Shown in pieces: positions 5,129 to 27,262 of a DNA stretch of 64,000 nt. Numbering within the stretch: the stretch's first letter is position 1; each line of letters starts with the position of its first letter. The stretch comes from Bacteroidia bacterium. Lineage in GTDB: Bacteria > Bacteroidota > Bacteroidia > NS11-12g > UBA9320. The notes under the pieces are model-generated. The model saw only the letters and a list, made by a program, of their open reading frames with translations, was not told the DNA's origin and ran no database searches. Both the position numbers and the translations under genes were made by a program. The stretch spans positions 11,347 through 75,346 of the forward strand of contig JAGVMN010000012.1 in assembly GCA_020053795.1 (NCBI GenBank). Direction: 5' to 3'.

Positions 5129-5654
5129 CTAACATTTGTTGTAACCTGACCCTTGCCTCATGCAGATACCATTTCGAGGTTCCTTCACTCATGTCCAGCA
5201 TCTCACCAATTTCGCGGTGGTTAAAACCATCAATGGCATATAAATTAAAGACCTTTTGACTCACCTGTGGCAGTGCTTGTAACATCTTGTGCAAGTCCTT
5301 TGCTGCTAAAGAAGTTTGAGAATCCAAAGCAGTTCTTACATTTTCGAATTTGTTCAGGTCGCCATTAAAAGAAATTATACTGTGGAGGCTTTTTGATTTT
5401 CTGAACTCATCGGTCAAATGGTTCAAGGCAATCGTTTTTACCCAAGGCAACAATGGTTTATCCAAATCGTATGTGATTAGGTTGCTGATTATTTTAAGGA
5501 AGATGGCATTCACGGCACCTCCCGCCTCATCATAATTGCGGTTGTATCGGATGCAAATATTCATGAGATAGCTAAACAACAGTTTGTACAATTGATTGCA
5601 GGCACGGCGATTCCCATTGGTACAATTTCTGATGAGTATAGCATCTATCTGCAT
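5079..5654 (-). CDS. RNA polymerase ECF-type sigma-70 family factor
   Basis: Region 2-like segment (CNQLYKLLFSYLMNICIRYNRNYDEAGGAVNAIFLKI...LLPWVKTIALNHLTDEFRK). Region 4 HTH segment (QKVFNLYAIDGFNHREIGEMLDMSEGTSKWYLHEARVRLQ). Confidence 0.85.
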   Translation of the reverse strand: MQIDAILIRNCTNGNRRACNQLYKLLFSYLMNICIRYNRNYDEAGGAVNAIFLKIISNLITYDLDKPLLPWVKTIALNHLTDEFRKSKSLHSIISFNGDLNKFENVRTALDSQTSLAAKDLHKMLQALPQVSQKVFNLYAIDGFNHREIGEMLDMSEGTSKWYLHEARVRLQQMLDEEHNRTNSIRFEKSR

Positions 5655-5722: not shown

Positions 5723-7093
5723 TTATCGTCTCACAAATTTGATATAATCAATACCAGTTTTGCCGGTTAACTTCAGGAAATACAATCCCGGTTGCAAGGT
5801 GCCGGTCCTAATAACTGATGTAAACATTGCCGTATTAATTATTTCATCGGAACGAAACACAATTTGTCCACTTGAATTAATGACTTCTATTTTAATGAAG
5901 TTTGGTTCTGAGTTCTCAAATGAAATAAACAATTCATCTGTCACTGGATTTGGATATATCTTCAATTTCAAACTGCTTATAACATCAATACCGACCTTAT
6001 CTTCATCTATGACAATTATTTCAAACCCTCCTGTTTTCATCAACTTGCCCGATGAATCCAACCCGAGTGAATCGCAATAAGTTGCAGTACAAGTACGACC
6101 TAAGTAACTGTCTGTAATGGTTAGGCAAACCAAATACCTACCAAAAGTTTTGTAACTGTGCGTTGGATTTCTCTGAGCAGAGGATGTACCATCTCCGAAA
6201 TCCCAGTAATAAGTTGTCAAGGGATTTTTGTTGGATTTATTGATCAGAAAAAGTTTGAATTTCTTGGACGTGTCAATGGCTACTGTAAAATAAGCTTTGC
6301 AAGTCGAATTGGATCCAACGTAAACTTGCCTACAGGTAGTAGAGGAATCTGTTGATGAACAATATACTGTAAGGCAAACATTATAATTCGTATTTACGTT
6401 GGTATAAACATGTACACCATTAGCAGATGTGCTTCCACTGCTGTCCCCAAAATCCCATTTCACGTTTAGTGGATAGTACGAAGATTGAAATACCATTGAA
6501 TCGCCTTTAACCGAATAGGTAAAAGTCGAGTAACAAGGTTTGGTTACTACAACAGCATGACAGGTGGAATCTGTACAATTGTTGACGGTATCTGTAATTT
6601 TCAGACAAGCAGTATAAGTACCTGTAGATGGGAAAGTGTATGTCACAATATTTGCCCCGGAACTGAGTTTATTGCCCGCAATGGTCCACTCGTGGATGAT
6701 GCCAAAAAAACCCGAATTGCTCTGAAAAGAATATTTGAGATAATTGGTATCAGGCCATTCCGTAAACCCTGCTCTGCATCCGGAACTCGTAAGCGAGATT
6801 ATCATGCAAACGGTATCGCCGCATCGGGTAACCGAATCAAAAATAGATAGACAAACCGTGTAAGGCCCTACTCCGTTATATTTATGAATTGGGTTTTGTT
6901 TGTTGCTGGAAGTTCCATCTCCGAAAATCCATGTCCAGTCCGTAACCCTGCTACCGGAAGTAGAACTATCATAGAAATCAACAGTCATAGTTGACGGATC
7001 AACATAATAAGAAAAGTTCGCCTTGCATTGAGCTTTTGCGAATTGGCTGCCGAAAACAGCCATCAGAAGAATGAGTACGTTTTTTGTTTTCAT
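5723..7093 (-). CDS. PKD-repeat surface protein with T9SS type-A C-terminal sorting domain
   Basis: Signal peptide MKTKNVLILLMAVFGSQFAKA. Repeated PKD signatures (WIFGDGTSSNKQNPIHKYNGVGPYTVCL; WDFGDSSGSTSANGVHVY; WDFGDGTSSAQRNPTHSYKTFGRYLVCL). C-terminal tail KIYPNPVTDELFISF...GLYFLKLTGKTGIDYIKFVRR. Confidence 0.85.
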   Translation of the reverse strand: MKTKNVLILLMAVFGSQFAKAQCKANFSYYVDPSTMTVDFYDSSTSGSRVTDWTWIFGDGTSSNKQNPIHKYNGVGPYTVCLSIFDSVTRCGDTVCMIISLTSSGCRAGFTEWPDTNYLKYSFQSNSGFFGIIHEWTIAGNKLSSGANIVTYTFPSTGTYTACLKITDTVNNCTDSTCHAVVVTKPCYSTFTYSVKGDSMVFQSSYYPLNVKWDFGDSSGSTSANGVHVYTNVNTNYNVCLTVYCSSTDSSTTCRQVYVGSNSTCKAYFTVAIDTSKKFKLFLINKSNKNPLTTYYWDFGDGTSSAQRNPTHSYKTFGRYLVCLTITDSYLGRTCTATYCDSLGLDSSGKLMKTGGFEIIVIDEDKVGIDVISSLKLKIYPNPVTDELFISFENSEPNFIKIEVINSSGQIVFRSDEIINTAMFTSVIRTGTLQPGLYFLKLTGKTGIDYIKFVRR

Positions 7094-7271: not shown

Positions 7272-9620
7272 TCACGAAGTCTGAGTCTTATCAAACACCA
7301 ATACATCCTCCACAGGTTTTCTCAAAGATTTGGTCATTTCCTCCGACTCGTGCAACCGGAACAAAAAGATTTCTCCCGGGTCTTTATTAATGCCAAAAAC
7401 TTCTTCATGGAGAACCCTTATTTCTGATAAGACCTTTATCATGTCGTCACTCAGTCCTTCGTTGTTGCCTTTGACCAAACGGGCAAAAAGAAAGATAGCG
7501 GCAGACATAGGCTGTATGGCAATGTCAAGTTCAGCACATTTGATCCAGATGCGTTGCATGGCTTTTCCGCCGTTCAAAAAATCGAGGCGACTGTAAGATG
7601 GCATGGTGAGCAATCCCACCGCCGATGAGTGGTCAATGCATTTTTTGCCCAGCTTTTCGAATGCCCCGCCGCCACCCCAGCGAATGAGATTTTTGACCAC
7701 GGACCATTTGCGGGCCAGATTGAAACCCGCTAATTCAGTGTTTGTAACGTCAACCGTTCGCATGTCAATACCCGTTCTCGAACGAATGGCATCTTCGGTT
7801 TTCCATTTTATTTCGTTGTAAAACTCGCGGTGGCTGGTTTCATTGGTCAATAAGGTTCTTTCGGATTTGCCGATGATTTTGGCAATGGTCTCCAGTTCCT
7901 CATCGGAACTTTTGATGATGAGTTTGGCTCCGGGAATTTCCGAAGCAACTTTTTTCAGGGCATCATATTTCCATTCAGGAATTTTAACCCTTTTGCTCAC
8001 TCTTCTGTTGGTGGCCCTTTGATCAAGGAACGGGTAATATTGCTGATGCCAGGTTTTTTTAGCCCCGCGGATATCATCCGATAATTTTCTGAAGAATATT
8101 TTGGCGATGAGTAATTGGTCTTCTTCCGGATACAGTTTAACTTCTGTTTCCAAACCAAGAGTATAGGCCTCCAATTCGAGATTTTCAATAGCGGCTCCCA
8201 ATCCGATATAGGCCCCCCGGTGGCGAAAATCGAGGTATTGGGTAGATGCATCCACTTCATGAACGAGGTATAGAATTCCCGATCGGTAAATCCATTTCCA
8301 GGGTTGGTTGTTTCCGCCGGACGGTGCTTTAATAGCTGTTGAAACAAGGGATGTAATTTCGGTTTCGGAAGGTATGTGAAATCCATCCGGCAATTTTTCA
8401 GATGAACCTATAATAGCATGGTAATTTCTGGTAGCGGCAAGTTCGACCGGGGACTGTTCGGCAGAAGTGTTTTCTTCTAATGAAGTATCTATTTTAGAGC
8501 TGCCATCTGCAACCAGATCAGCAATATCGACAATGTATCTGCCAGATTCCCTGTATTGATCGAGCAACATTCTTCGGCAAATGTCAGCAGTCATGCCACC
8601 ACCATAAGTTACCGCAGAAGCCAATTGTGGCCAGGTATTCACCGTCTGGGTTATTTCAAGCAAAGACGAACGCATCCGGTCAGATAAGTTTCCCAGACCA
8701 ACAATCTGCATCATAAAAGGCATTTTCTCTTCATTGGTTCTGGCGGCTTTGGCTTTTTGAGGATCCATATCATGCAACAGCCCGTGTAAAATTGGTCTCT
8801 CCGGTTCCAGATCAAACCGCTCCACATCTATAGTGCCCCGCTCGCTGGCCTCCATCAAAACTGGTACGCGATGAAATTTAGCCCTTTCGCGACAGGCAAT
8901 TTTGATGTCTAATCCATCACATTCGTCTATCAGAACATCCAGTTTCCCGCCATCAAGAATAAAGGAATCGAGGTTAGCTTCAGTAATGCCCTCATGAAAA
9001 CAAACGACTGTTAAGAATGGATCAATCTCGGCAATTTCCCGGGCCACAGCCACGACCTTTGTAATTCCCAGATTATGTAACCCGGTTCTTATCCTGTTCA
9101 GGTTGGTGAGTTCCAAAATGTCGTTATCTGCAATCCTCAGTTCCCCGACGATCCGTTCGAGGGCTAAAGTGGTAGAGACCGAACTGCCTACCGACAGGCC
9201 AATGACGCCCACTTTTTTTGTTGCCAGTAGTTTTTGCTCATCGGTGGTTATCTTGTTCTTGTTGCGGTTGGTTCTGGCTTCAATGAATTCCCTTTCATCA
9301 AGTATGTGAATGAGTTTATTTGACCAAGGATAGAAAACCCAAACGCCGTATTCTTCAATGGGGGTGTCCTTTAGATGAATCTTTACAGCATCATCAAGAA
9401 TCTGCTTTGGAAATGGCCTGTCAGGGTTCAGAGATTTAACCAATTCCTCTAACTGACCAATCATTTCATCATGAACACACAGGTGCTTATTATCTTGAAT
9501 TAATCGCAGTAACTTTTCTTTTTCCGACGGGTTCGACAGTTTGAAAAATTCCGGAACATGAACCTGTTTTATTTTGTCAGATTCGCTCCTTAACGCATTT
9601 AGACCATGTATTTTTTCCAT
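7272..9620 (-). CDS. ThiF/E1-like adenylyltransferase domain fused to a nitroreductase-fold domain (Rv1355c/MoeY-like architecture)
   Basis: The N-terminal half has a ThiF/MoeB-type dinucleotide loop and following strand (KKVGVIGLSVGSSVSTTLALERIVGELRIADNDILELTNLNRI). The C-terminal third has the nitroreductase-type signature APSGGNNQPWKW. Confidence 0.7.
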   Translation of the reverse strand: MEKIHGLNALRSESDKIKQVHVPEFFKLSNPSEKEKLLRLIQDNKHLCVHDEMIGQLEELVKSLNPDRPFPKQILDDAVKIHLKDTPIEEYGVWVFYPWSNKLIHILDEREFIEARTNRNKNKITTDEQKLLATKKVGVIGLSVGSSVSTTLALERIVGELRIADNDILELTNLNRIRTGLHNLGITKVVAVAREIAEIDPFLTVVCFHEGITEANLDSFILDGGKLDVLIDECDGLDIKIACRERAKFHRVPVLMEASERGTIDVERFDLEPERPILHGLLHDMDPQKAKAARTNEEKMPFMMQIVGLGNLSDRMRSSLLEITQTVNTWPQLASAVTYGGGMTADICRRMLLDQYRESGRYIVDIADLVADGSSKIDTSLEENTSAEQSPVELAATRNYHAIIGSSEKLPDGFHIPSETEITSLVSTAIKAPSGGNNQPWKWIYRSGILYLVHEVDASTQYLDFRHRGAYIGLGAAIENLELEAYTLGLETEVKLYPEEDQLLIAKIFFRKLSDDIRGAKKTWHQQYYPFLDQRATNRRVSKRVKIPEWKYDALKKVASEIPGAKLIIKSSDEELETIAKIIGKSERTLLTNETSHREFYNEIKWKTEDAIRSRTGIDMRTVDVTNTELAGFNLARKWSVVKNLIRWGGGGAFEKLGKKCIDHSSAVGLLTMPSYSRLDFLNGGKAMQRIWIKCAELDIAIQPMSAAIFLFARLVKGNNEGLSDDMIKVLSEIRVLHEEVFGINKDPGEIFLFRLHESEEMTKSLRKPVEDVLVFDKTQTS

Positions 9621-20775: not shown

Positions 20776-23700
20776 ATGGGACGTTCGACTGTACATTACG
20801 CAGACAATAAAACAAACAATGCTTTAAAAAAGCTACACAACAAGTTAAGACCTGCTGGTACACCTGTTCAACGAGTGGAGTATATCATTGAATTGCTTTT
20901 ATTGAGAATTTTTGAAACCAAAATAAAACAAGACGAAGAGTTTAAACCGTTACGCAGACTTTTTTCGGCTGACTATGTTTGGAAAAACCCCAAAACGGGT
21001 GTTGAGGAAACAAACGAAAATCGTTTATTCTCTTATTTGCCCACAGTTTCCAACGAGCAGATTTTATCTGAACTCAACGATAACTTTTTTCCATTCTATT
21101 CAAGCATTTTGCACAGTGCAAGACAAGTGTTTGAAGGAAACCTTCCCCAAAAAGTTCAAGACCAATTGGTGTTGATTGAAGAAGTTTTCAGCAACTCAAA
21201 TTTCACGAACAATGTAAATAGCGGAAATCTTGGCGAAGTAATCAGCATTGTTGCCAACGACATTGAAGAAGCAAGGCTATTGAAAACCGACCTTTTAGGT
21301 GATGCCATTGAATCGGCTTTGAGTGAAACAGGCGGAACAAAAGATGTTGGACTATTCCGAACGCCTGACCATATTCGACAATTTATGACGGCTATGATAG
21401 AGCCGACTTTTGACGATATAATTTTTGACCCTGCTTGTGGTACAGGTGGTTTTTTGTTTGATGCTTTTGAATTTGTAATGCGAAGAGTTGACCCCGACCG
21501 TGAATGGCCGGGCGAAAAAGCTCATTCTGAATTATCGGCTTGGTTTGACGAGTATTTTAAGTTCAATCAATTGGACTTTCCGAGCATTGAGCAAACCACA
21601 CAGTTTTACCGAAGTGGCGTAACAGGCATTGAATATTTGGGAATGATTCGCAAAATGGCGGCTATCAACTTTTATGTTCGGGGCTTAAACCCTGCCAACA
21701 TTGAGCAAGGCGATAGTTTAGCAAAATATAGACCCGTAACCGACCACGAAAGCAAATCGGTTATTTTGGCCAATCCACCTTTTGGGGCACAACGTGACCA
21801 GGAAAGTTATCCTGATGTTTGGGGCGAATATTCCAAAGAATCGGAAACCACTATTTTGTTTGTGAAACTGATGTTTGAGCAACTCAAAGCAGGTGGCAGA
21901 TGTGCCGTTGTAGTTTCAGAAGGTTTTCATACCTGGGACCAGTTTAGTGCAAAGGCTTTGCGTAAAATGCTATTGGACGAAGCCCAACTAAAAGCCGTTA
22001 TTTCTTTGCCGCAAGGTTTGTTTGTGAGCAAAAGCGGACAAGGCCCCAAAACGAGTATTCTCATTTTTGAAAAAGGTACTTCGACAGGCTCAGTAACCAC
22101 TTCGACAGGCTCAGTATCTACCGACTGGACTTGGTTTTACAAAATAACCAACGATGGTTACACCATGGGAACCAACCGTAAGGAGCAAAAAGGAAATCAA
22201 CTGATTGAATGCCTTACGCTGTGGCACGAATATGTAAAACATGGTAAGCAACCGCCCGAAACCAAAAACCAATTTTGCATTCCTGCCGAATGGATTAAAA
22301 CACTTGACCCACGGATAAAAGAAAAAATCCGCACAGAAACCCGTGCCGATATGGAAGTGAAAGGCAAAATTGAACGGGAGAAAAAAGAGGCCGACCTTGA
22401 TAAAAAGATAAAAGCAAAAAAAGCTACCGAAGCCGACAAGTCAATGGAACTGAAAACCTTTGACCAAATGCTGGAAAACCGCATACAAAACGAAATTGCC
22501 AAACGTATTGACAAGGCACACAACTATTCTTTCAACTTAGCCAATTATAAAAGCAGTATCAGCGACAGCCAAATTGTAGAATGGACGGAAGCACTTAAAC
22601 ACATTCAGCCAAATGGAGCAACTACGGTAGAAGATGTTTACAAAAAACTGAATAACGGCAAGCCCGAAAACATTTTACCCTATCTGCTAAAACTAAACCC
22701 AACCAATGCACTGGAAGCCGACATTGCCCGGGAATATGTAAGCAATTTGGACAACGACCTTATTGCAAAACATAAGGAGTTGAATGTGATTAAGGAGATT
22801 TTGAAAAGCGGTGCAAAATATCCAATGGTTAAATTGAAAGACTATTTGATATTGAATGAAAACAAAATAAAGCCCAATAAAAACCCTGATGTAAATTACA
22901 AAGTGCTTGGTGTAAGCAATGAAGAAGGCATTTTCTTAAACGAAAAACTACAAGCCGAAGAAACCAACCAAAGCTATTTTGTAGTGGCGAAAAATGAATT
23001 TTGCTACAACCCATACAGAATAAATGTGGGAAGCATTGGCTTAAATACCAACGACTACGACAACCAAATTATTAGCGGTGCGTACATTGTGTTTGCTTGC
23101 AAAGAAGATGAACTCAACCCAAAATATTTAGACACACTTTTTAAGAGCAAAGGTTTTTTGAATTATGTGAACGACAAAGCCAATGGCGGAGTGCGTATGA
23201 ACTTTAAGTTTGAAGATATGGCAGCCTGGGAAATTCCCTTGCCTTCTCTTGACGAACAAAACGCCATTGTTGCCCAAATTGAAAAACAAAAAGCGATTAT
23301 TGAAGGGGCGGAAAAAATCGTTTCTAATTGGAGTGTTGATATTGATTCCTATTTGTCGCATTATTATTTTTCACAAAAGCCAATTTCAGATTTAATAGTT
23401 GATTCGCTCTATGGTTCTTCTGAAAAAGCAGATTATCAAGAAGACGGCTACAATGTTTTAAGAATAGGAAATATCGGTTTTTGTGATTTCAAACTAAGTG
23501 ATATTAAGAAATCAGTATTATCAGAAAAAGACTTTAAAAAATACGAATTAAAGAAAGGAGATTTTTTAATAGTTCGGTCAAATGGCAATCCAAATCTTGT
23601 AGGCAAATGTGCTGTTTGGGATTCTGATTTGCAATTTGTCTATGCTTCCTATTTGATTAGGTTTAGATTCAAATTAGACGAAATAAACCCCAAATATGTA

Positions 23701-23991
23701 ATGTATTTCTTAATGAGCGAAAAAGGTAGAAGTTTATTGAACCCGACTGCTGGCGGTGGAACATACAATATAAGTGCAACAGATTTTCAAAAAGTTCAAA
23801 TTCCTTATCCAAATCCAGAAATTCAAAACAAAATTGTTGCTGAATTAGATGCACAAATGGAAGTTTTGAACGGCTTACGAAAAATAAAAACCGAAGCCCA
23901 AAAGAAAATCAATCAAATCTTAGCAGATGTTTGGGGTGTAGAATTTTCAGAACCTATAAAAATGGAGATAGCGGATGAGCAAGAAAATTAA
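20776..23991 (+). CDS. hsdM: Type I restriction-modification fused methyltransferase-specificity subunit (HsdM-HsdS fusion)
   Basis: HsdM-N-like start (LHNKLRPAGTPVQRVEYIIELLLLRIFE). SAM motif I FDPACGTGGFLFDA and motif IV ILANPPFG. A Lys/Glu-rich coiled-coil linker follows. Then come two target-recognition domains, each followed by the HsdS conserved helix (IPLPSLDEQNAIVAQIEKQKAII; IPYPNPEIQNKIVAELDAQMEVL). Confidence 0.8.
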   Translation: MGRSTVHYADNKTNNALKKLHNKLRPAGTPVQRVEYIIELLLLRIFETKIKQDEEFKPLRRLFSADYVWKNPKTGVEETNENRLFSYLPTVSNEQILSELNDNFFPFYSSILHSARQVFEGNLPQKVQDQLVLIEEVFSNSNFTNNVNSGNLGEVISIVANDIEEARLLKTDLLGDAIESALSETGGTKDVGLFRTPDHIRQFMTAMIEPTFDDIIFDPACGTGGFLFDAFEFVMRRVDPDREWPGEKAHSELSAWFDEYFKFNQLDFPSIEQTTQFYRSGVTGIEYLGMIRKMAAINFYVRGLNPANIEQGDSLAKYRPVTDHESKSVILANPPFGAQRDQESYPDVWGEYSKESETTILFVKLMFEQLKAGGRCAVVVSEGFHTWDQFSAKALRKMLLDEAQLKAVISLPQGLFVSKSGQGPKTSILIFEKGTSTGSVTTSTGSVSTDWTWFYKITNDGYTMGTNRKEQKGNQLIECLTLWHEYVKHGKQPPETKNQFCIPAEWIKTLDPRIKEKIRTETRADMEVKGKIEREKKEADLDKKIKAKKATEADKSMELKTFDQMLENRIQNEIAKRIDKAHNYSFNLANYKSSISDSQIVEWTEALKHIQPNGATTVEDVYKKLNNGKPENILPYLLKLNPTNALEADIAREYVSNLDNDLIAKHKELNVIKEILKSGAKYPMVKLKDYLILNENKIKPNKNPDVNYKVLGVSNEEGIFLNEKLQAEETNQSYFVVAKNEFCYNPYRINVGSIGLNTNDYDNQIISGAYIVFACKEDELNPKYLDTLFKSKGFLNYVNDKANGGVRMNFKFEDMAAWEIPLPSLDEQNAIVAQIEKQKAIIEGAEKIVSNWSVDIDSYLSHYYFSQKPISDLIVDSLYGSSEKADYQEDGYNVLRIGNIGFCDFKLSDIKKSVLSEKDFKKYELKKGDFLIVRSNGNPNLVGKCAVWDSDLQFVYASYLIRFRFKLDEINPKYVMYFLMSEKGRSLLNPTAGGGTYNISATDFQKVQIPYPNPEIQNKIVAELDAQMEVLNGLRKIKTEAQKKINQILADVWGVEFSEPIKMEIADEQEN

Positions 23992-24015
23992 AAGGGGGTC
24001 GAATTCCATCCATTT

Positions 24016-24039
24016 AAACCCCTCGAATTCGAGGGGTTT
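24016..24039. repeat. 24-bp perfect palindrome AAACCCCTCGAATTCGAGGGGTTT between hsdMS and the KilA-N gene (possible terminator/operator)
   Basis: Read directly from the sequence. The arms are 24016-24027 and 24028-24039, centred on GAATTC. Flanking A3/T3 make it symmetric. It lies 25 nt after the hsdMS stop. Confidence 0.8.
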
Positions 24040-24060
24040 GAAAATTAAAATTTTAGAACA

Positions 24061-24879
24061 ATGGCAAAGAGCAATAAAATAAATGTAAAAAACACCGAAA
24101 TTCTCATATATACCGAGAAAGCAAATGAGTTTATTAGCCTAACTGATATTGCCCGATACAGAGACGCAGAACGAAGCGATTATATTTTGCAAAACTGGAT
24201 GCGTAACAGAAGTACTATTGAATTTATGGGGCTTTGGGAAGCTTTCAACAATCCTGATTTTAATTCCATCGAATTCGATGGAATTAAAAATTTATCTGGT
24301 TCCAACAGTTTCGCCTTGACACCGAAAAGATGGATTGAAGCTACCAATGCCAAAGGGATTGTTTCAAAAACAGGGCGTTACGGTGGTACATTTGCCCACA
24401 AGGATATTGCATTTGAATTTGCTTCGTGGTTAAGTGCCGAATTTAAGTTTTATCTAATCAAAGAATTTCAACGCCTCAAAGAAGAAGAGCAAAAACAAAT
24501 AGGCTGGAGTGCTAAACGAGAGTTGGCAAAACTCAATTATCATATCCATACCGATGCCATTAAACAAAACCTTATACCCAAAGAACTAACAGCTTCGCAA
24601 ACTTCCATTATTTATGCCAATGAGGCTGATGTTCTCAATATGGCGTTGTTTGGCATAACAGCAAAACAGTGGAGAGATGCAAATCCTGATTTGAAAGGAA
24701 ATATCAGAGATTATGCAGGCATTAATGAACTAATTTGCCTTAGCAATATGGAGAATATAAATGCGGTATTTATCAACGAGGGATTGTCACAGAACGAGCG
24801 ATTAGTTAAACTCAATGCGATTGCCATTCAGCAGATGAAAATATTAACCGAAGTAGAAAACCGAAAATTGTTGAAATAA
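24061..24879 (+). CDS. KilA-N domain-containing DNA-binding protein embedded in the R-M operon
   Basis: The N-terminal block FISLTDIARYRDAERSDYILQNWMRNRSTIEFMGLWE...TGRYGGTFAHKDIAFEFASWLSAEFKFYLIKEF matches the KilA-N pattern. The gene ends 1 nt before the hsdR ATG. Confidence 0.7.
   Translation: MAKSNKINVKNTEILIYTEKANEFISLTDIARYRDAERSDYILQNWMRNRSTIEFMGLWEAFNNPDFNSIEFDGIKNLSGSNSFALTPKRWIEATNAKGIVSKTGRYGGTFAHKDIAFEFASWLSAEFKFYLIKEFQRLKEEEQKQIGWSAKRELAKLNYHIHTDAIKQNLIPKELTASQTSIIYANEADVLNMALFGITAKQWRDANPDLKGNIRDYAGINELICLSNMENINAVFINEGLSQNERLVKLNAIAIQQMKILTEVENRKLLK
24258..24289. repeat. 32-bp perfect palindrome TTTTAATTCCATCGAATTCGATGGAATTAAAA inside the KilA-N coding sequence
   Basis: Read directly from the sequence. 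The arms are 24258-24273 and 24274-24289. It encodes DFNSIEFDGIKN. It shares the TCGAATTCGA core with the palindrome at 24016-24039. Confidence 0.9.
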
Positions 24880-24880
24880 T

Positions 24881-27262
24881 ATGGCAACGAAAATTAACGA
24901 GGCTACTTCTACCGATTTGCCAATCATACAACGATTAGTAAATGATTACGGCTGGAAAGTTGGCGATACTTTATTGTATCAGCAAATTTATGATCTTTCA
25001 GAAAACCTAAAAAAAGATTACGCTAACCTTAAAAATATTCGTCCCGATATCGTTTTACAAGATTTAAATGGTGAAGTTTTAGCCGTTATTGAAAACAACC
25101 TCGACAAAGAAAATAAAGACTTGTTGAAATTGCGTACTGTGGTAACGCATTTGCTAAAACCCCGATTTTTGTATGCTTGTAGTGCCGAGCGTATTTTGTT
25201 TTACGACAACACTTGGAAAGGTTTAGAGGCAGGAGAATTTAAGCAAGTAACTTCCTTTATGAGTTTGGAAGATATGAAGCTCAAAATTGAGCAGCAGAAA
25301 AAAATTGCTTCCAACAAAGAAATTACTATTGACACCACCATTGCCGGCGGTTTAGACCCAGGCATTGGCAAAGAAAGATATTACCAACTGCAATGTATCC
25401 GCACAATAATTGAAAACTACAAAGCAGGAAAACAAAAAATGCTAATCCATATGGCAACAGGTCTGGGCAAAACCCGAACAGCCGTAGCCTTTGTAAAAGC
25501 ATTATTGGGAAGCGGTTTAGCCAAACGAGTTTTGTTTGTGGTTGATAGAAGAATGTTGGCCAAACAATCGGTTGATGATGGCTTTGCACTCATCAGACGT
25601 GAACATACAAGCAGTTGGATAACTACTTCCAATTTCAGAGCAAGAAAACACGCCAGTATTCACATCGTTGTTATTGATACATTGGAATTAATTCACAGCG
25701 ATTTGCCTTCCAACTATTACGATTTAATTATTGTGGACGAGTGCCACCGAAGTATAAACGTAAGCAGGAAACTAATCTTCGACCATTTTCTTTGCCCGAG
25801 AGTTGGCTTAACCGCCACGCCAAGAATAGCAACACCCAAAGAAGGAACAGAGGTCGATGATGAAGATTTGGCAATCATTGACACATACAAATTGTTTGGT
25901 TGCGAAACAGGCGAACCCGACTTTCAATTTGATATGGACAGAGGAATTAGCGAAGGTTTTCTTGCACCCTACAAACCCATTGAATTGCTTTCTTCACTGA
26001 TACAAGAAGCCGAAGAAAACGGAATATCATTTGATCACGTTTTAGACCCCGGAGAAAAATATGTTATTGCTCTCGGTGCAGAAAAGAAACTGAAATTAGA
26101 ACAGCTCAACCGCAAATTCATTTCAGAAGAAAACTGTTTACGCATAGCAGAAGAACTTAAAAAGAATACGCAATACGGAGAGAAAATAATTCTCTTTGGC
26201 GTTAGTCAGGCACATTGTATGGAGTTAGCAAAGGCAGTTAACACCGTTTTTGAAAAAGACCTTTCAGAAAAGCCTTATTACGCTGAAGCAGTAATTTCAG
26301 AAAACAACGAACTGAATGAAACGCTAAAAGCATGGTTTAAAAAGCCCTATCAAAAACCCTATGTCGTCACTTCGGTGGACATTTTAAGCACAGGAGTTGA
26401 CATTCCTTGTGTTCGTTACATTGCTTTTGCGGGGCTTACAAAATCGGTAGGCAAATACATTCAAATGGTTGGGCGTGGCACACGACTTGACCCGAAAACG
26501 GGCAAGTTTAGTTTCACTGTTTTAGACTTTGTTGGCTTGTGCAGACGAATGGAAGACAACGGAAAAGGAACGCTAAAAGAAAACAATATAGTTGTAAAAC
26601 CTGGCGACCAAAAACCAAAAGTAACTGGAACACCACAACTGAAAGGCAACTACTTTTTAATTGACAACCCCGACCCTGCTCATTTGATTCAACGTGTAGA
26701 AATTCATGGAGATTCAATCATTGTTAAAGACAATATTCCCATTGAAGAAGCCAAGAGAATTTTTGAAGAAGAATTAAAGAAAACACAAGAGCCGGTAATG
26801 GCAGACTTGAAAGAAAAAGCCAAACAAGACAACTATCAGCCAACAGAAGAAGAAATGGCTAAACTGCTTGACTGGTTAAGCAAACCAAACACATTTTTGG
26901 ACGAAGGACATTTGCAAAAAATGTACGACTTCCCCGAAGGTTCGGCTTGGGACTTCTTGCTTCACGCTTTAGGTAAAAAGAAAATTCCGACACCGAAAGA
27001 ACGCATTGAGAAAAACTATCTTTCATATATACACACTTACAACTTTACAGACGAGCAAATAATTGTGCTGAAAAAGATTAAAGATGTATTTGCTTCCAAC
27101 TTTGCTTCTAAACGTAGCATAGACGAGAAAGAAATTTTTGGAAACCCTATTTACGAAAGGCTTATTGGTTCGTATGACGACATAAACAAAAAGTTTGATG
27201 GTAAATTCAATTTGGTAATTAATGACTTAAAACAAACATTTGGAAATAGAATAAACGCATAG
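24881..27262 (+). CDS. hsdR: Type I restriction enzyme R subunit (short, EcoAI/EcoEI-like type IB architecture)
   Basis: N-terminal HsdR_N-like region (IRPDIVLQDLNGEVLAVIENNLDK). SF2 helicase motifs I MATGLGKT, II VDECHRS, III LTATP and VI QMVGRGTR. A C-terminal helical domain resembles the EcoEI R C-terminal domain. Confidence 0.8.
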   Translation: MATKINEATSTDLPIIQRLVNDYGWKVGDTLLYQQIYDLSENLKKDYANLKNIRPDIVLQDLNGEVLAVIENNLDKENKDLLKLRTVVTHLLKPRFLYACSAERILFYDNTWKGLEAGEFKQVTSFMSLEDMKLKIEQQKKIASNKEITIDTTIAGGLDPGIGKERYYQLQCIRTIIENYKAGKQKMLIHMATGLGKTRTAVAFVKALLGSGLAKRVLFVVDRRMLAKQSVDDGFALIRREHTSSWITTSNFRARKHASIHIVVIDTLELIHSDLPSNYYDLIIVDECHRSINVSRKLIFDHFLCPRVGLTATPRIATPKEGTEVDDEDLAIIDTYKLFGCETGEPDFQFDMDRGISEGFLAPYKPIELLSSLIQEAEENGISFDHVLDPGEKYVIALGAEKKLKLEQLNRKFISEENCLRIAEELKKNTQYGEKIILFGVSQAHCMELAKAVNTVFEKDLSEKPYYAEAVISENNELNETLKAWFKKPYQKPYVVTSVDILSTGVDIPCVRYIAFAGLTKSVGKYIQMVGRGTRLDPKTGKFSFTVLDFVGLCRRMEDNGKGTLKENNIVVKPGDQKPKVTGTPQLKGNYFLIDNPDPAHLIQRVEIHGDSIIVKDNIPIEEAKRIFEEELKKTQEPVMADLKEKAKQDNYQPTEEEMAKLLDWLSKPNTFLDEGHLQKMYDFPEGSAWDFLLHALGKKKIPTPKERIEKNYLSYIHTYNFTDEQIIVLKKIKDVFASNFASKRSIDEKEIFGNPIYERLIGSYDDINKKFDGKFNLVINDLKQTFGNRINA

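Follow-up and report, generated by a model that had tools for sequence, protein, structure and literature searches.

The question raised by this locus is why a gene for a DNA-binding protein should carry a long perfect palindrome within its coding sequence, and be preceded by a second palindrome with the same centre. The locus lies in a 64,000-nucleotide (nt) stretch of contig JAGVMN010000012.1 of the Bacteroidia bacterium assembly GCA_020053795.1 (positions 11,347 to 75,346, forward strand), the whole of which is termed the window here, and it comprises a KilA-N domain gene embedded in a multi-gene defence system, between the fused hsdM-hsdS gene (hsdMS) and the hsdR gene of a type I restriction-modification (R-M) operon. 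A perfect zero-spacer palindrome, AAACCCCTCGAATTCGAGGGGTTT, occupies 24016-24039 within the 69-nt gap (23992-24060) 3' of hsdMS, and can be extended to 15-nt arms with one mismatch (24013-24042). A perfect zero-spacer 32-mer, TTTTAATTCCATCGAATTCGATGGAATTAAAA, lies at 24258-24289 inside the KilA-N gene, and TCGAATTCGA is the common centre of both. The preliminary description of this DNA had reported both palindromes, their shared core, the 69-nt gap and the layout of three genes, all of which were borne out by inspection of the sequence.

The 32-mer is in frame and spans codons 66-77, with its centre at the E71/F72 codon boundary. Mirror codons on either side are reverse complements of each other (TTT/AAA, AAT/ATT, TCC/GGA, ATC/GAT, GAA/TTC), and owing to this codon-by-codon symmetry the peptide FNSIEFDGIK is encoded on both strands, an antisense self-hit being given by tblastn. 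Within the whole genome (2,319,005 bp) the decamer TCGAATTCGA occurs only twice, both times in the cassette described below, and a generic genomic repeat is thereby excluded. The genome contains eight zero-spacer palindromes whose arms reach at least 12 nt, against approximately 0.2 expected from base composition, and the 32-mer is the second longest of the eight. A chance origin of the palindromes, already considered implausible for the 32-mer in the preliminary description, is excluded. No further palindromes of this family type were detected elsewhere in the 2.32-Mb genome; outside the window, contig C6 carries a perfect 36-mer palindrome (AAACATAGCCCACGGTTTAAACCGTGGGCTATGTTT, 7800-7835), and contig C38 carries two near-identical 28-mer palindromes, GT(T/A)GAGACAAGGCATGCCTTGTCTC(A/T)AC, at 8516-8543 and 8809-8836, with a spacing of 293 bp.

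Conservation of the internal palindrome

Alignment of homologous KilA-N genes revealed that the palindrome is present in them and is conserved beyond what the amino acid sequence needs; the two palindromes are related to each other and tied to the KilA-N gene, as had been proposed. All 136 aligned homologues were palindromic or near-palindromic at codons 66-77, except for three rows that were out of register in the protein alignment. The arms covary via codon pairs that change the amino acids, namely S/G (TCC-GGA), P/G (CCC-GGG), H/V (CAC-GTG), C/T (TGT-ACA) and Y/I (TAT-ATA), and further via I/D (ATC-GAT), V/D (GTC-GAC), L/E (CTC-GAG), G/A (GGC-GCC), N/I and K/F.

Conservation statistics were obtained from 80 homologue loci retrieved through peptides outside the palindrome, the palindrome itself not being used in their selection. 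These loci had a mean of 14.4 Watson-Crick pairs out of 16, versus 9.38 ± 0.16 under synonymous codon resampling, and 17 of the 80 were perfect palindromes, where none was expected under the same resampling. Codon choice is constrained, as the preliminary description had anticipated for a palindrome kept within a reading frame: proline was encoded by CCC in 34/34 cases, Ile70 by ATC in 25/25, Arg76 by AGA in 29/29 and Phe72 by TTC in 65/77. In an alignment of 79 sequences, 93.9% of cells were paired (77.1 ± 0.7% when shuffled, 29-62% when the partner was slid), double-sided changes numbered 176 versus 46 ± 7, and a compensatory change was found in 9 of 14 pairs. The element is also kept in phage and satellite copies at 45-56% protein identity, with new codon pairs including R/S and L/Q, and in two decayed pseudogenes (L086 and L128).

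On these alignments, both palindromes are copies of one element of approximately 30 bp, consisting of TTTTAA, five variable bases, TCGAATTCGA, five complementary bases and TTAAAA, and the internal copy is evidently kept self-complementary across the family by paired codon changes that alter the protein. Since the pairing, the central core and the outer ends are all conserved, the element must, judged by this pattern, act as a nucleic acid, and most likely as DNA. An artefact of sequencing adaptors or linkers was ruled out, as the element is found inside contigs, in frame and in isolate genomes. An AlphaFold2 (AF2) model with a pLDDT of 86.9 places the residues encoded by the palindrome in a loop (64-68) followed by a short helix (69-78), and residues 68-70 and 73-75 vary widely among homologues. 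The protein motif F-N/K-x-x-E-F-x-x-I/F-K, conserved across phyla, proves to be dictated by the symmetry of the DNA and not by the needs of the protein, which matters for the annotation or modelling of KilA-N-type domains.

The inserted cassette and its leader

Orthologues of the window HsdR were found in many Bacteroidota and beyond, and their identity of up to 94% across distant taxa points to a recent horizontal spread of the island; the HsdM-HsdS fusion is common to the orthologous operons. In approximately 15 orthologous loci, which have neither insert nor palindrome, hsdMS overlaps hsdR by 17 nt (ATGAGCAAGAAAATTAA). In such empty operons this 17-mer is the end of hsdMS overlapping the start of hsdR, and in the window it is duplicated on both flanks; the insert therefore corresponds to 23992-24880, comprising a leader and the KilA-N gene, and since the leader is included, its palindrome arrived with the KilA-N cassette. 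Junctions were defined using nine insert-free operons (L201, L210, L211, L214, L216, L231, L232, L234 and L255). The 17-mer duplication leaves both R-M genes intact, and the hsdR start after insertion, ATGGCAA..., resembles that of the KilA-N gene (ATGGCAAAG); these sequences suggest insertion of the cassette via recombination at similar gene starts. The junction of hsdMS and hsdR is a variable slot across the orthologous R-M loci (L201-L265), holding a KilA-N gene in approximately 10 and something else in approximately 17, including genes for DUF6932, a zeta-toxin-like protein (with DUF6932), YhcG/DUF1016, Bro-N, PDDEXK_3 and PIN proteins.

In three orthologous operons the KilA-N gene is fused directly onto the old hsdR start, with neither leader nor leader palindrome; the takeover of the old hsdR start by the KilA-N gene was observed in L203, L254 and L258. 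The leader copies are not strictly required by either the R-M operon or the KilA-N gene. Comparison of the operons indicates that the palindromes belong to the inserted KilA-N cassette and not to the R-M operon; the element travels with this cassette, and also exists as free-standing copies in phages.

This distribution bears directly on the suggestion that the palindromes are operators or attenuators tuning the expression of hsdMS versus hsdR. Their position between these genes and the presence of two sites 246 bp apart would suit such a role, and palindromic sites near the gene of a small DNA-binding protein in an R-M locus recall the operators of R-M controller (C) proteins. However, orthologous operons work without palindromes, their junction being empty or occupied by other inserted genes, and the element follows the KilA-N gene into contexts other than R-M. 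The window protein is moreover a KilA-N protein and does not possess the helix-turn-helix of C proteins, and sites that are required by, or conserved with, the R-M operon were not found, approximately 15 orthologous operons being devoid of them. The insert-free operons, the three operons without a leader palindrome and the location of most KilA-N family members outside R-M loci speak both against the operators setting a methylase:nuclease ratio that the preliminary description had considered and against its proposal of hairpins attenuating read-through into hsdR. On this comparison the R-M enzymes are not regulated by the element, and an expression-tuning role within the operon is highly improbable.

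Table 1. Coordinates in the window of the cassette, its palindrome units and the adjoining genes.
Feature	Position	Strand	Evidence	Remark
Fused HsdM-HsdS gene, 1071 amino acids (aa)	20776..23991	+	Pfam N6_Mtase and Methylase_S; PADLOC MTase_I, Specificity_I	Type I R-M host operon, outside element
Left copy of duplicated 17-mer, ATGAGCAAGAAAATTAA	23975..23991	+	Junctions of nine insert-free orthologous operons	
Inserted 889-bp cassette: 69-nt leader with palindrome units, KilA-N gene, one base	23992..24880	+	Comparison with insert-free orthologous operons	
Leader unit A: decayed palindrome copy, AAGGGGGTCGAATTCCATCCATTTAAA	23992..24018	.	Aligns with unit AAAGTGGTCGAATT(C/T)GACCCC in leaders of L264 and L207	Contains the 'third half-site'
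Leader unit B: free-standing palindrome, perfect over 24016-24039	24013..24042	.	Equals in-gene variant 'FKPLEFEGF' of other family members	
KilA-N domain gene, 272 aa, PADLOC candidate family PDC-S22	24061..24879	+	Pfam KilA-N 1.6e-20; PDC-S22 5.9e-133; phrog_2657; AF2 pLDDT 86.9	
Internal 32-bp perfect palindrome (DFNSIEFDGIKN), codons 66-77	24258..24289	.	Family-wide structure-conserved element	
Right, diverged 17-mer copy, ATGGCAACGAAAATTAA, now hsdR start	24881..24897	+	First bases resemble KilA-N start ATGGCAAAG	
HsdR, 793 aa	24881..27262	+	Pfam ResIII, Helicase_C, EcoEI_R_C; orthologues up to 94% identity	Host operon, outside element

The KilA-N gene is the only copy in the genome. Its product scored 73.3 bits against Pfam PF04383 (KilA-N) over residues 8-141 (gathering cut-off 23.8), and gave a full-length match to the PDC-S22 model PDLC04962 (E 5.9e-133), with residues 1-270 on profile positions 1-272 of 281, whilst no NCBIfam model was matched by this 272-aa protein. 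PDC-S22-type genes are known from within type I R-M, BREX and DISARM loci (Payne et al. 2024, bioRxiv 10.1101/2024.01.29.577857). The window protein is like them in its end-to-end model match and in its embedding, the slot being occupied by other accessory genes in other genomes; the role of PDC-S22 in defence is a predicted one. In the papers searched, no mention of a conserved palindrome within PDC-S22-type genes was found. The family is strikingly well conserved, its members sharing 62-73% identity across Bacteroidota, Proteobacteria, Firmicutes, Verrucomicrobiota and methanogens, and most do not adjoin relatives of the window R-M system. A repressor module and an integrase flank the gene in Staphylococcus phage EW and in the Streptococcus satellites Javan279 and Javan97. 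A fold search with the AF2 model returned weak matches only, to DdrC (probability 0.98, TM approximately 0.3) and to the DNA-binding domain of Mbp1, from which no function was assignable to the C-terminal helical domain.

The 24-mer of leader unit B is identical to the in-gene variant 'FKPLEFEGF' of three family members (L041, L063 and L072), and between the window and L264 the unit differs by one compensatory C-G to A-T change. The sequence GTCGAATTCCATC at 23998-24010, previously described as a third half-site, is present but constitutes the left arm and core of the decayed unit A (23992-24018), a further palindrome unit that is better preserved in related leaders. The window leader aligns over both units with the leaders of L264 and L207, and over unit B with those of L213 and L221. 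Nearly all invariant columns of this alignment lie in unit B, though the genes themselves differ (68-87% amino acid identity to the window KilA-N protein). Free-standing units were located 20-135 nt upstream of KilA-N genes at approximately 10 distinct loci in Bacteroidota and Verrucomicrobiota, and one to three of them precede KilA-N genes in other contexts and phyla (L078, L084, L094, L108 and L198); arrays of orphan units were found in L097, L137, L139 and L193. Within the R-M slot, the leader variants never equal the internal variant of the resident gene, and instead equal the internal variants of other genes in this slot, for which reason the leader copies look like remains of earlier occupants or captured copies. 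In either case, where the rest of a gene has been lost, it is the palindrome that remains.

Leader variants that match other occupants of the slot but never the resident gene would also be expected if the palindrome, as a hairpin, cruciform or core, were a place of exchange or insertion of KilA-N cassettes, with leader copies and chimeric units as scars of serial replacement. Some units are indeed chimeric, the left arm of one variant being joined at the core to the right arm of another, and half-units lie directly against full ones in the window, L139 and L264. The cassette has no recombinase yet is found at many unrelated sites, and in-frame copies of the element are present in viral genes of unrelated kinds (a portal gene at its 5' end, a HATPase protein, and the linker of a protein family without a Pfam match). 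Nonetheless, we consider a recombination or mobility site rather unlikely, given that the cassette junctions in the window are the duplicated 17-mer at gene starts and not the palindrome, that genes with chimeric arms (N...F class) displayed no clear discordance of N- and C-terminal ancestry by nearest-neighbour identity, that no inverted or split arrangement was present in approximately 200 loci, and that no associated recombinase was identified. An inversion switch between the leader and internal palindromes was likewise rejected, as none of these approximately 200 loci had the N-terminal part inverted relative to the C-terminal part.

Structure-conserved hairpins of mobile DNA include integron attC sites, REP/RAYT elements and the ends of IS200/IS605 elements, and similar features are known as the PeSL stem-loops of T4-type phages. 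The element resembles these in the conservation of pairing over sequence, in its intergenic terminator-like sites and in its association with cassette shuffling. It differs in that there are only two copies in this genome, without a cognate recombinase or transposase, that one copy is always in coding sequence, and that the core is conserved. The many copies per genome and the RAYT link that characterize REP elements were not found, as the two copies in 2.32 Mb both reside in the cassette.

Copies in viral and cellular sequences

Viral contigs were scanned for the cores of both palindromes, and cellular genomes for the family core, the resulting counts being lower bounds. The core of the 32-mer (CCATCGAATTCGATGG) was found at no fewer than 120 loci in viral contigs, versus 2 and 3 for two composition-matched control palindromes, and that of the 24-mer (CCCTCGAATTCGAGGG) at no fewer than 116, versus 27 for its control. 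In cellular genomes the family core was present at no fewer than 120 loci, versus 45 matches of one of these control palindromes in the whole collection, and a KilA-N homologue accompanied it in 60 of the matches listed. Relative to the controls, the density of the element is higher in viral contigs by roughly an order of magnitude, with the provisos that control counts are small and that the viral collection is redundant.

Few of these viral copies reside in KilA-N genes, with only 3 loci for the 32-mer core and 13 for the 24-mer core among the matches listed. For the 32-mer core, approximately half of the viral loci among the matches listed are intergenic, many with terminator-like A- and T-tracts, and approximately 36 of the at least 120 fall, in another reading frame, within the linker of one viral protein family of 350-430 aa. 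In single cases the core is in frame inside unrelated viral genes, at the 5' end of a portal gene and in a gene for a HATPase-domain protein. In the phage portal gene (L290:3014-4231), codons 13-25 form the palindrome and precede the Pfam portal domain. The unannotated 350-430-aa family, for which there was no Pfam match, has the N-terminus ...NIVFAYHNGDAELA... and was observed in L275, L303, L318, L353 and approximately 30 other viral loci; read in this different frame, its palindrome encodes the peptide TGLNTPSNSMGLE, which is part of a variable linker followed by a basic tail.

The terminator-like surroundings of many viral orphans, T-tracts included, are among the features that would be accounted for by an element acting in RNA, with the leader hairpins serving as inter-cistronic terminators, insulators or stabilisers, and the in-gene hairpin as a processing, pausing or stability signal limiting a potentially toxic protein. 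Stable sense-strand hairpins were predicted for the leader (-23.7 kcal/mol, z -3.1) and for the internal copy (-17.7 kcal/mol, z -5.1); the leader fold is dominated by the 24-mer hairpin, and the pairing of GGGGG with CCCC that had been put forward as its alternative is not favoured. Free-standing copies keep the stem pairing while the central 4 nt drift, and Arg76 is always encoded by AGA, which is compatible with U:G pairing. The internal hairpin was also flagged as terminator-like by a consensus scan; with this loose consensus one terminator was found versus 1.1 expected from shuffles, and scans for sigma-70 promoters and terminators gave background levels only. The leader hairpin was not called as a terminator, and the in-gene hairpin is followed by A-rich sequence instead of a U-tract. 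Matches to Rfam 15 covariance models were at chance level only (E 0.5-8, far below gathering scores), G:T pairs were no commoner than A:C once two clade-specific positions were set aside, and a single sequence shared by unrelated phages and phyla is not a feature of ordinary terminators. An RNA-level role is regarded here as unlikely, although it fits some of the evidence.

It is also conceivable that the palindrome has no function, perpetuates itself by intrastrand template switching and is tolerated by the protein, the leader copies being functionless remains of dead genes. The correction of quasi-palindromes by template switching is a well-established mutational bias, unit A of the window is decaying, and the encoded loop and short helix include the widely variable residues noted above. 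However, such a bias alone is unlikely to keep one element at a single codon position in every member, in phages as well as in phyla of bacteria and archaea, and it would leave unexplained both the excess of at least 40-fold over control palindromes in viral contigs and the survival of the palindrome alone when the rest of the gene has been deleted. The absence of any function is accordingly quite improbable.

A candidate DNA ligand of the KilA-N protein

The reading we favour, tentatively, is that the element is the DNA ligand of the KilA-N domain, as a duplex or an extruded hairpin, by analogy with the aba element of BstA. Binding by the KilA-N protein was among the roles put forward in the preliminary description. 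BstA is a KilA-N abortive-infection protein whose cognate DNA element, aba, overlaps its own gene (Owen et al. 2021, PMC8585504). The action of aba is exerted as DNA and is variant-specific; the element is transferable to other phages and suppresses BstA on DNA that carries it. It is 63 bp long, lies at the start of the gene and has direct CCCGCC repeats at its ends (PMC8585504). The window gene is similar in that a KilA-N protein appears with a short candidate DNA element overlapping its own coding sequence, and in that the gene lies next to a repressor module in phage EW and the satellites. It differs in that the element is a zero-spacer palindrome at codons 66-77, with leader copies, and does not consist of direct repeats at the gene start. 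A PADLOC scan of the window protein returned only PDC-S22 at E <= 0.001, the presence of a BstA model in the library not being confirmed.

If the element were such a ligand, the common contacts for the KilA-N DNA-binding domain would be supplied by its conserved core and ends, and the five covarying pairs would form a lineage-specific signature. Following the analogy with BstA and aba, the element may mark or protect the DNA carrying it, or feed back on the protein; orphan phage copies might act as decoys or targets, and the leader copies could be retained sites from earlier or other KilA-N variants. A ligand would explain the location within the gene, because the element would be inseparable from it, and also the variable signature pairs, the upstream copies and the abundance of orphans in phages, as decoys or targets. 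The context is consistent with this, in that the protein has a DNA-binding KilA-N domain and its gene stands beside a repressor module in phage EW and the satellites.

Several observations weigh against a DNA ligand. The symmetric covariation fits an RNA hairpin equally well, and many viral orphans, with an A-tract, stem and T-tract, resemble ordinary terminators. The anatomy of aba is different, being at the gene start with direct repeats, and leader variants that differ from the variant of the resident gene are awkward for a simple autoregulatory operator. As approximately 36 of the at least 120 viral loci represent one viral gene family, their independence is limited. The asymmetry of wobble pairs, G:T versus A:C, is a candidate discriminator between RNA and DNA but is not decisive, the G:T excess coming from two clade-specific positions only.

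Sites for nucleic acid transactions within the gene of the acting protein are known elsewhere, as in the ori iterons of lambda gene O, the phiX174 origin in gene A and the pT181 origin in repC. There, as here, a nucleic acid site in the coding sequence of a DNA-binding protein constrains that protein. PDC-S22, however, gives no sign of being a replication initiator, its site is a single palindrome and not a set of iterons, and there are extra free-standing copies upstream. No paper describing the palindrome of KilA-N genes was found in the literature searched.

A broader, more speculative proposal, which we regard as doubtful, would have genes of the KilA-N superfamily, Bro-N included, carry the recognition palindrome of their own product within the coding sequence of the DNA-binding domain, with the five covarying pairs as a lineage-specific self/non-self password in anti-phage defence and with phages collecting orphan copies as decoys; such collection would account for the element being so strongly over-represented in viral contigs. 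The internal-hairpin phenomenon may be general to the KilA-N/Bro-N superfamily, because Bro-N genes in the hsdMS-hsdR slot carry their own internal hairpin with compensatory changes. Such Bro-N hairpins were observed at approximately codon 60 in L257 (4317-4345) and L258 (4318-4346), with stems of 12-13 bp, TGAGTTGTCCGA-aaaaa-TCGGACAACTGA versus TGAACTGTCCGA-aaaat-TCGGACAGTTGA, the copies differing by compensatory changes. Were the element the cognate ligand of a widespread defence candidate, the principle of BstA and aba, in which a short DNA password within the gene of a defence protein switches that protein off, would reach beyond a few enterobacterial prophages into many phyla of bacteria and archaea, and an anti-defence element that is simple and portable would have been identified in phages. 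As a 32-bp site that can be recoded synonymously, the palindrome also provides a concrete handle on an uncharacterised candidate system.

Palindromes of other kinds were observed around KilA-N genes at two further loci. Direct copies of a 20-bp palindrome (5412-5431 and 7298-7317) bracket the KilA-N gene of L016 (Methanocella), and two similar GC-rich hairpins (5851-5878 and 6941-6972) bracket that of L034; these may derive from the insertion, as duplicates of a target or terminator sequence.

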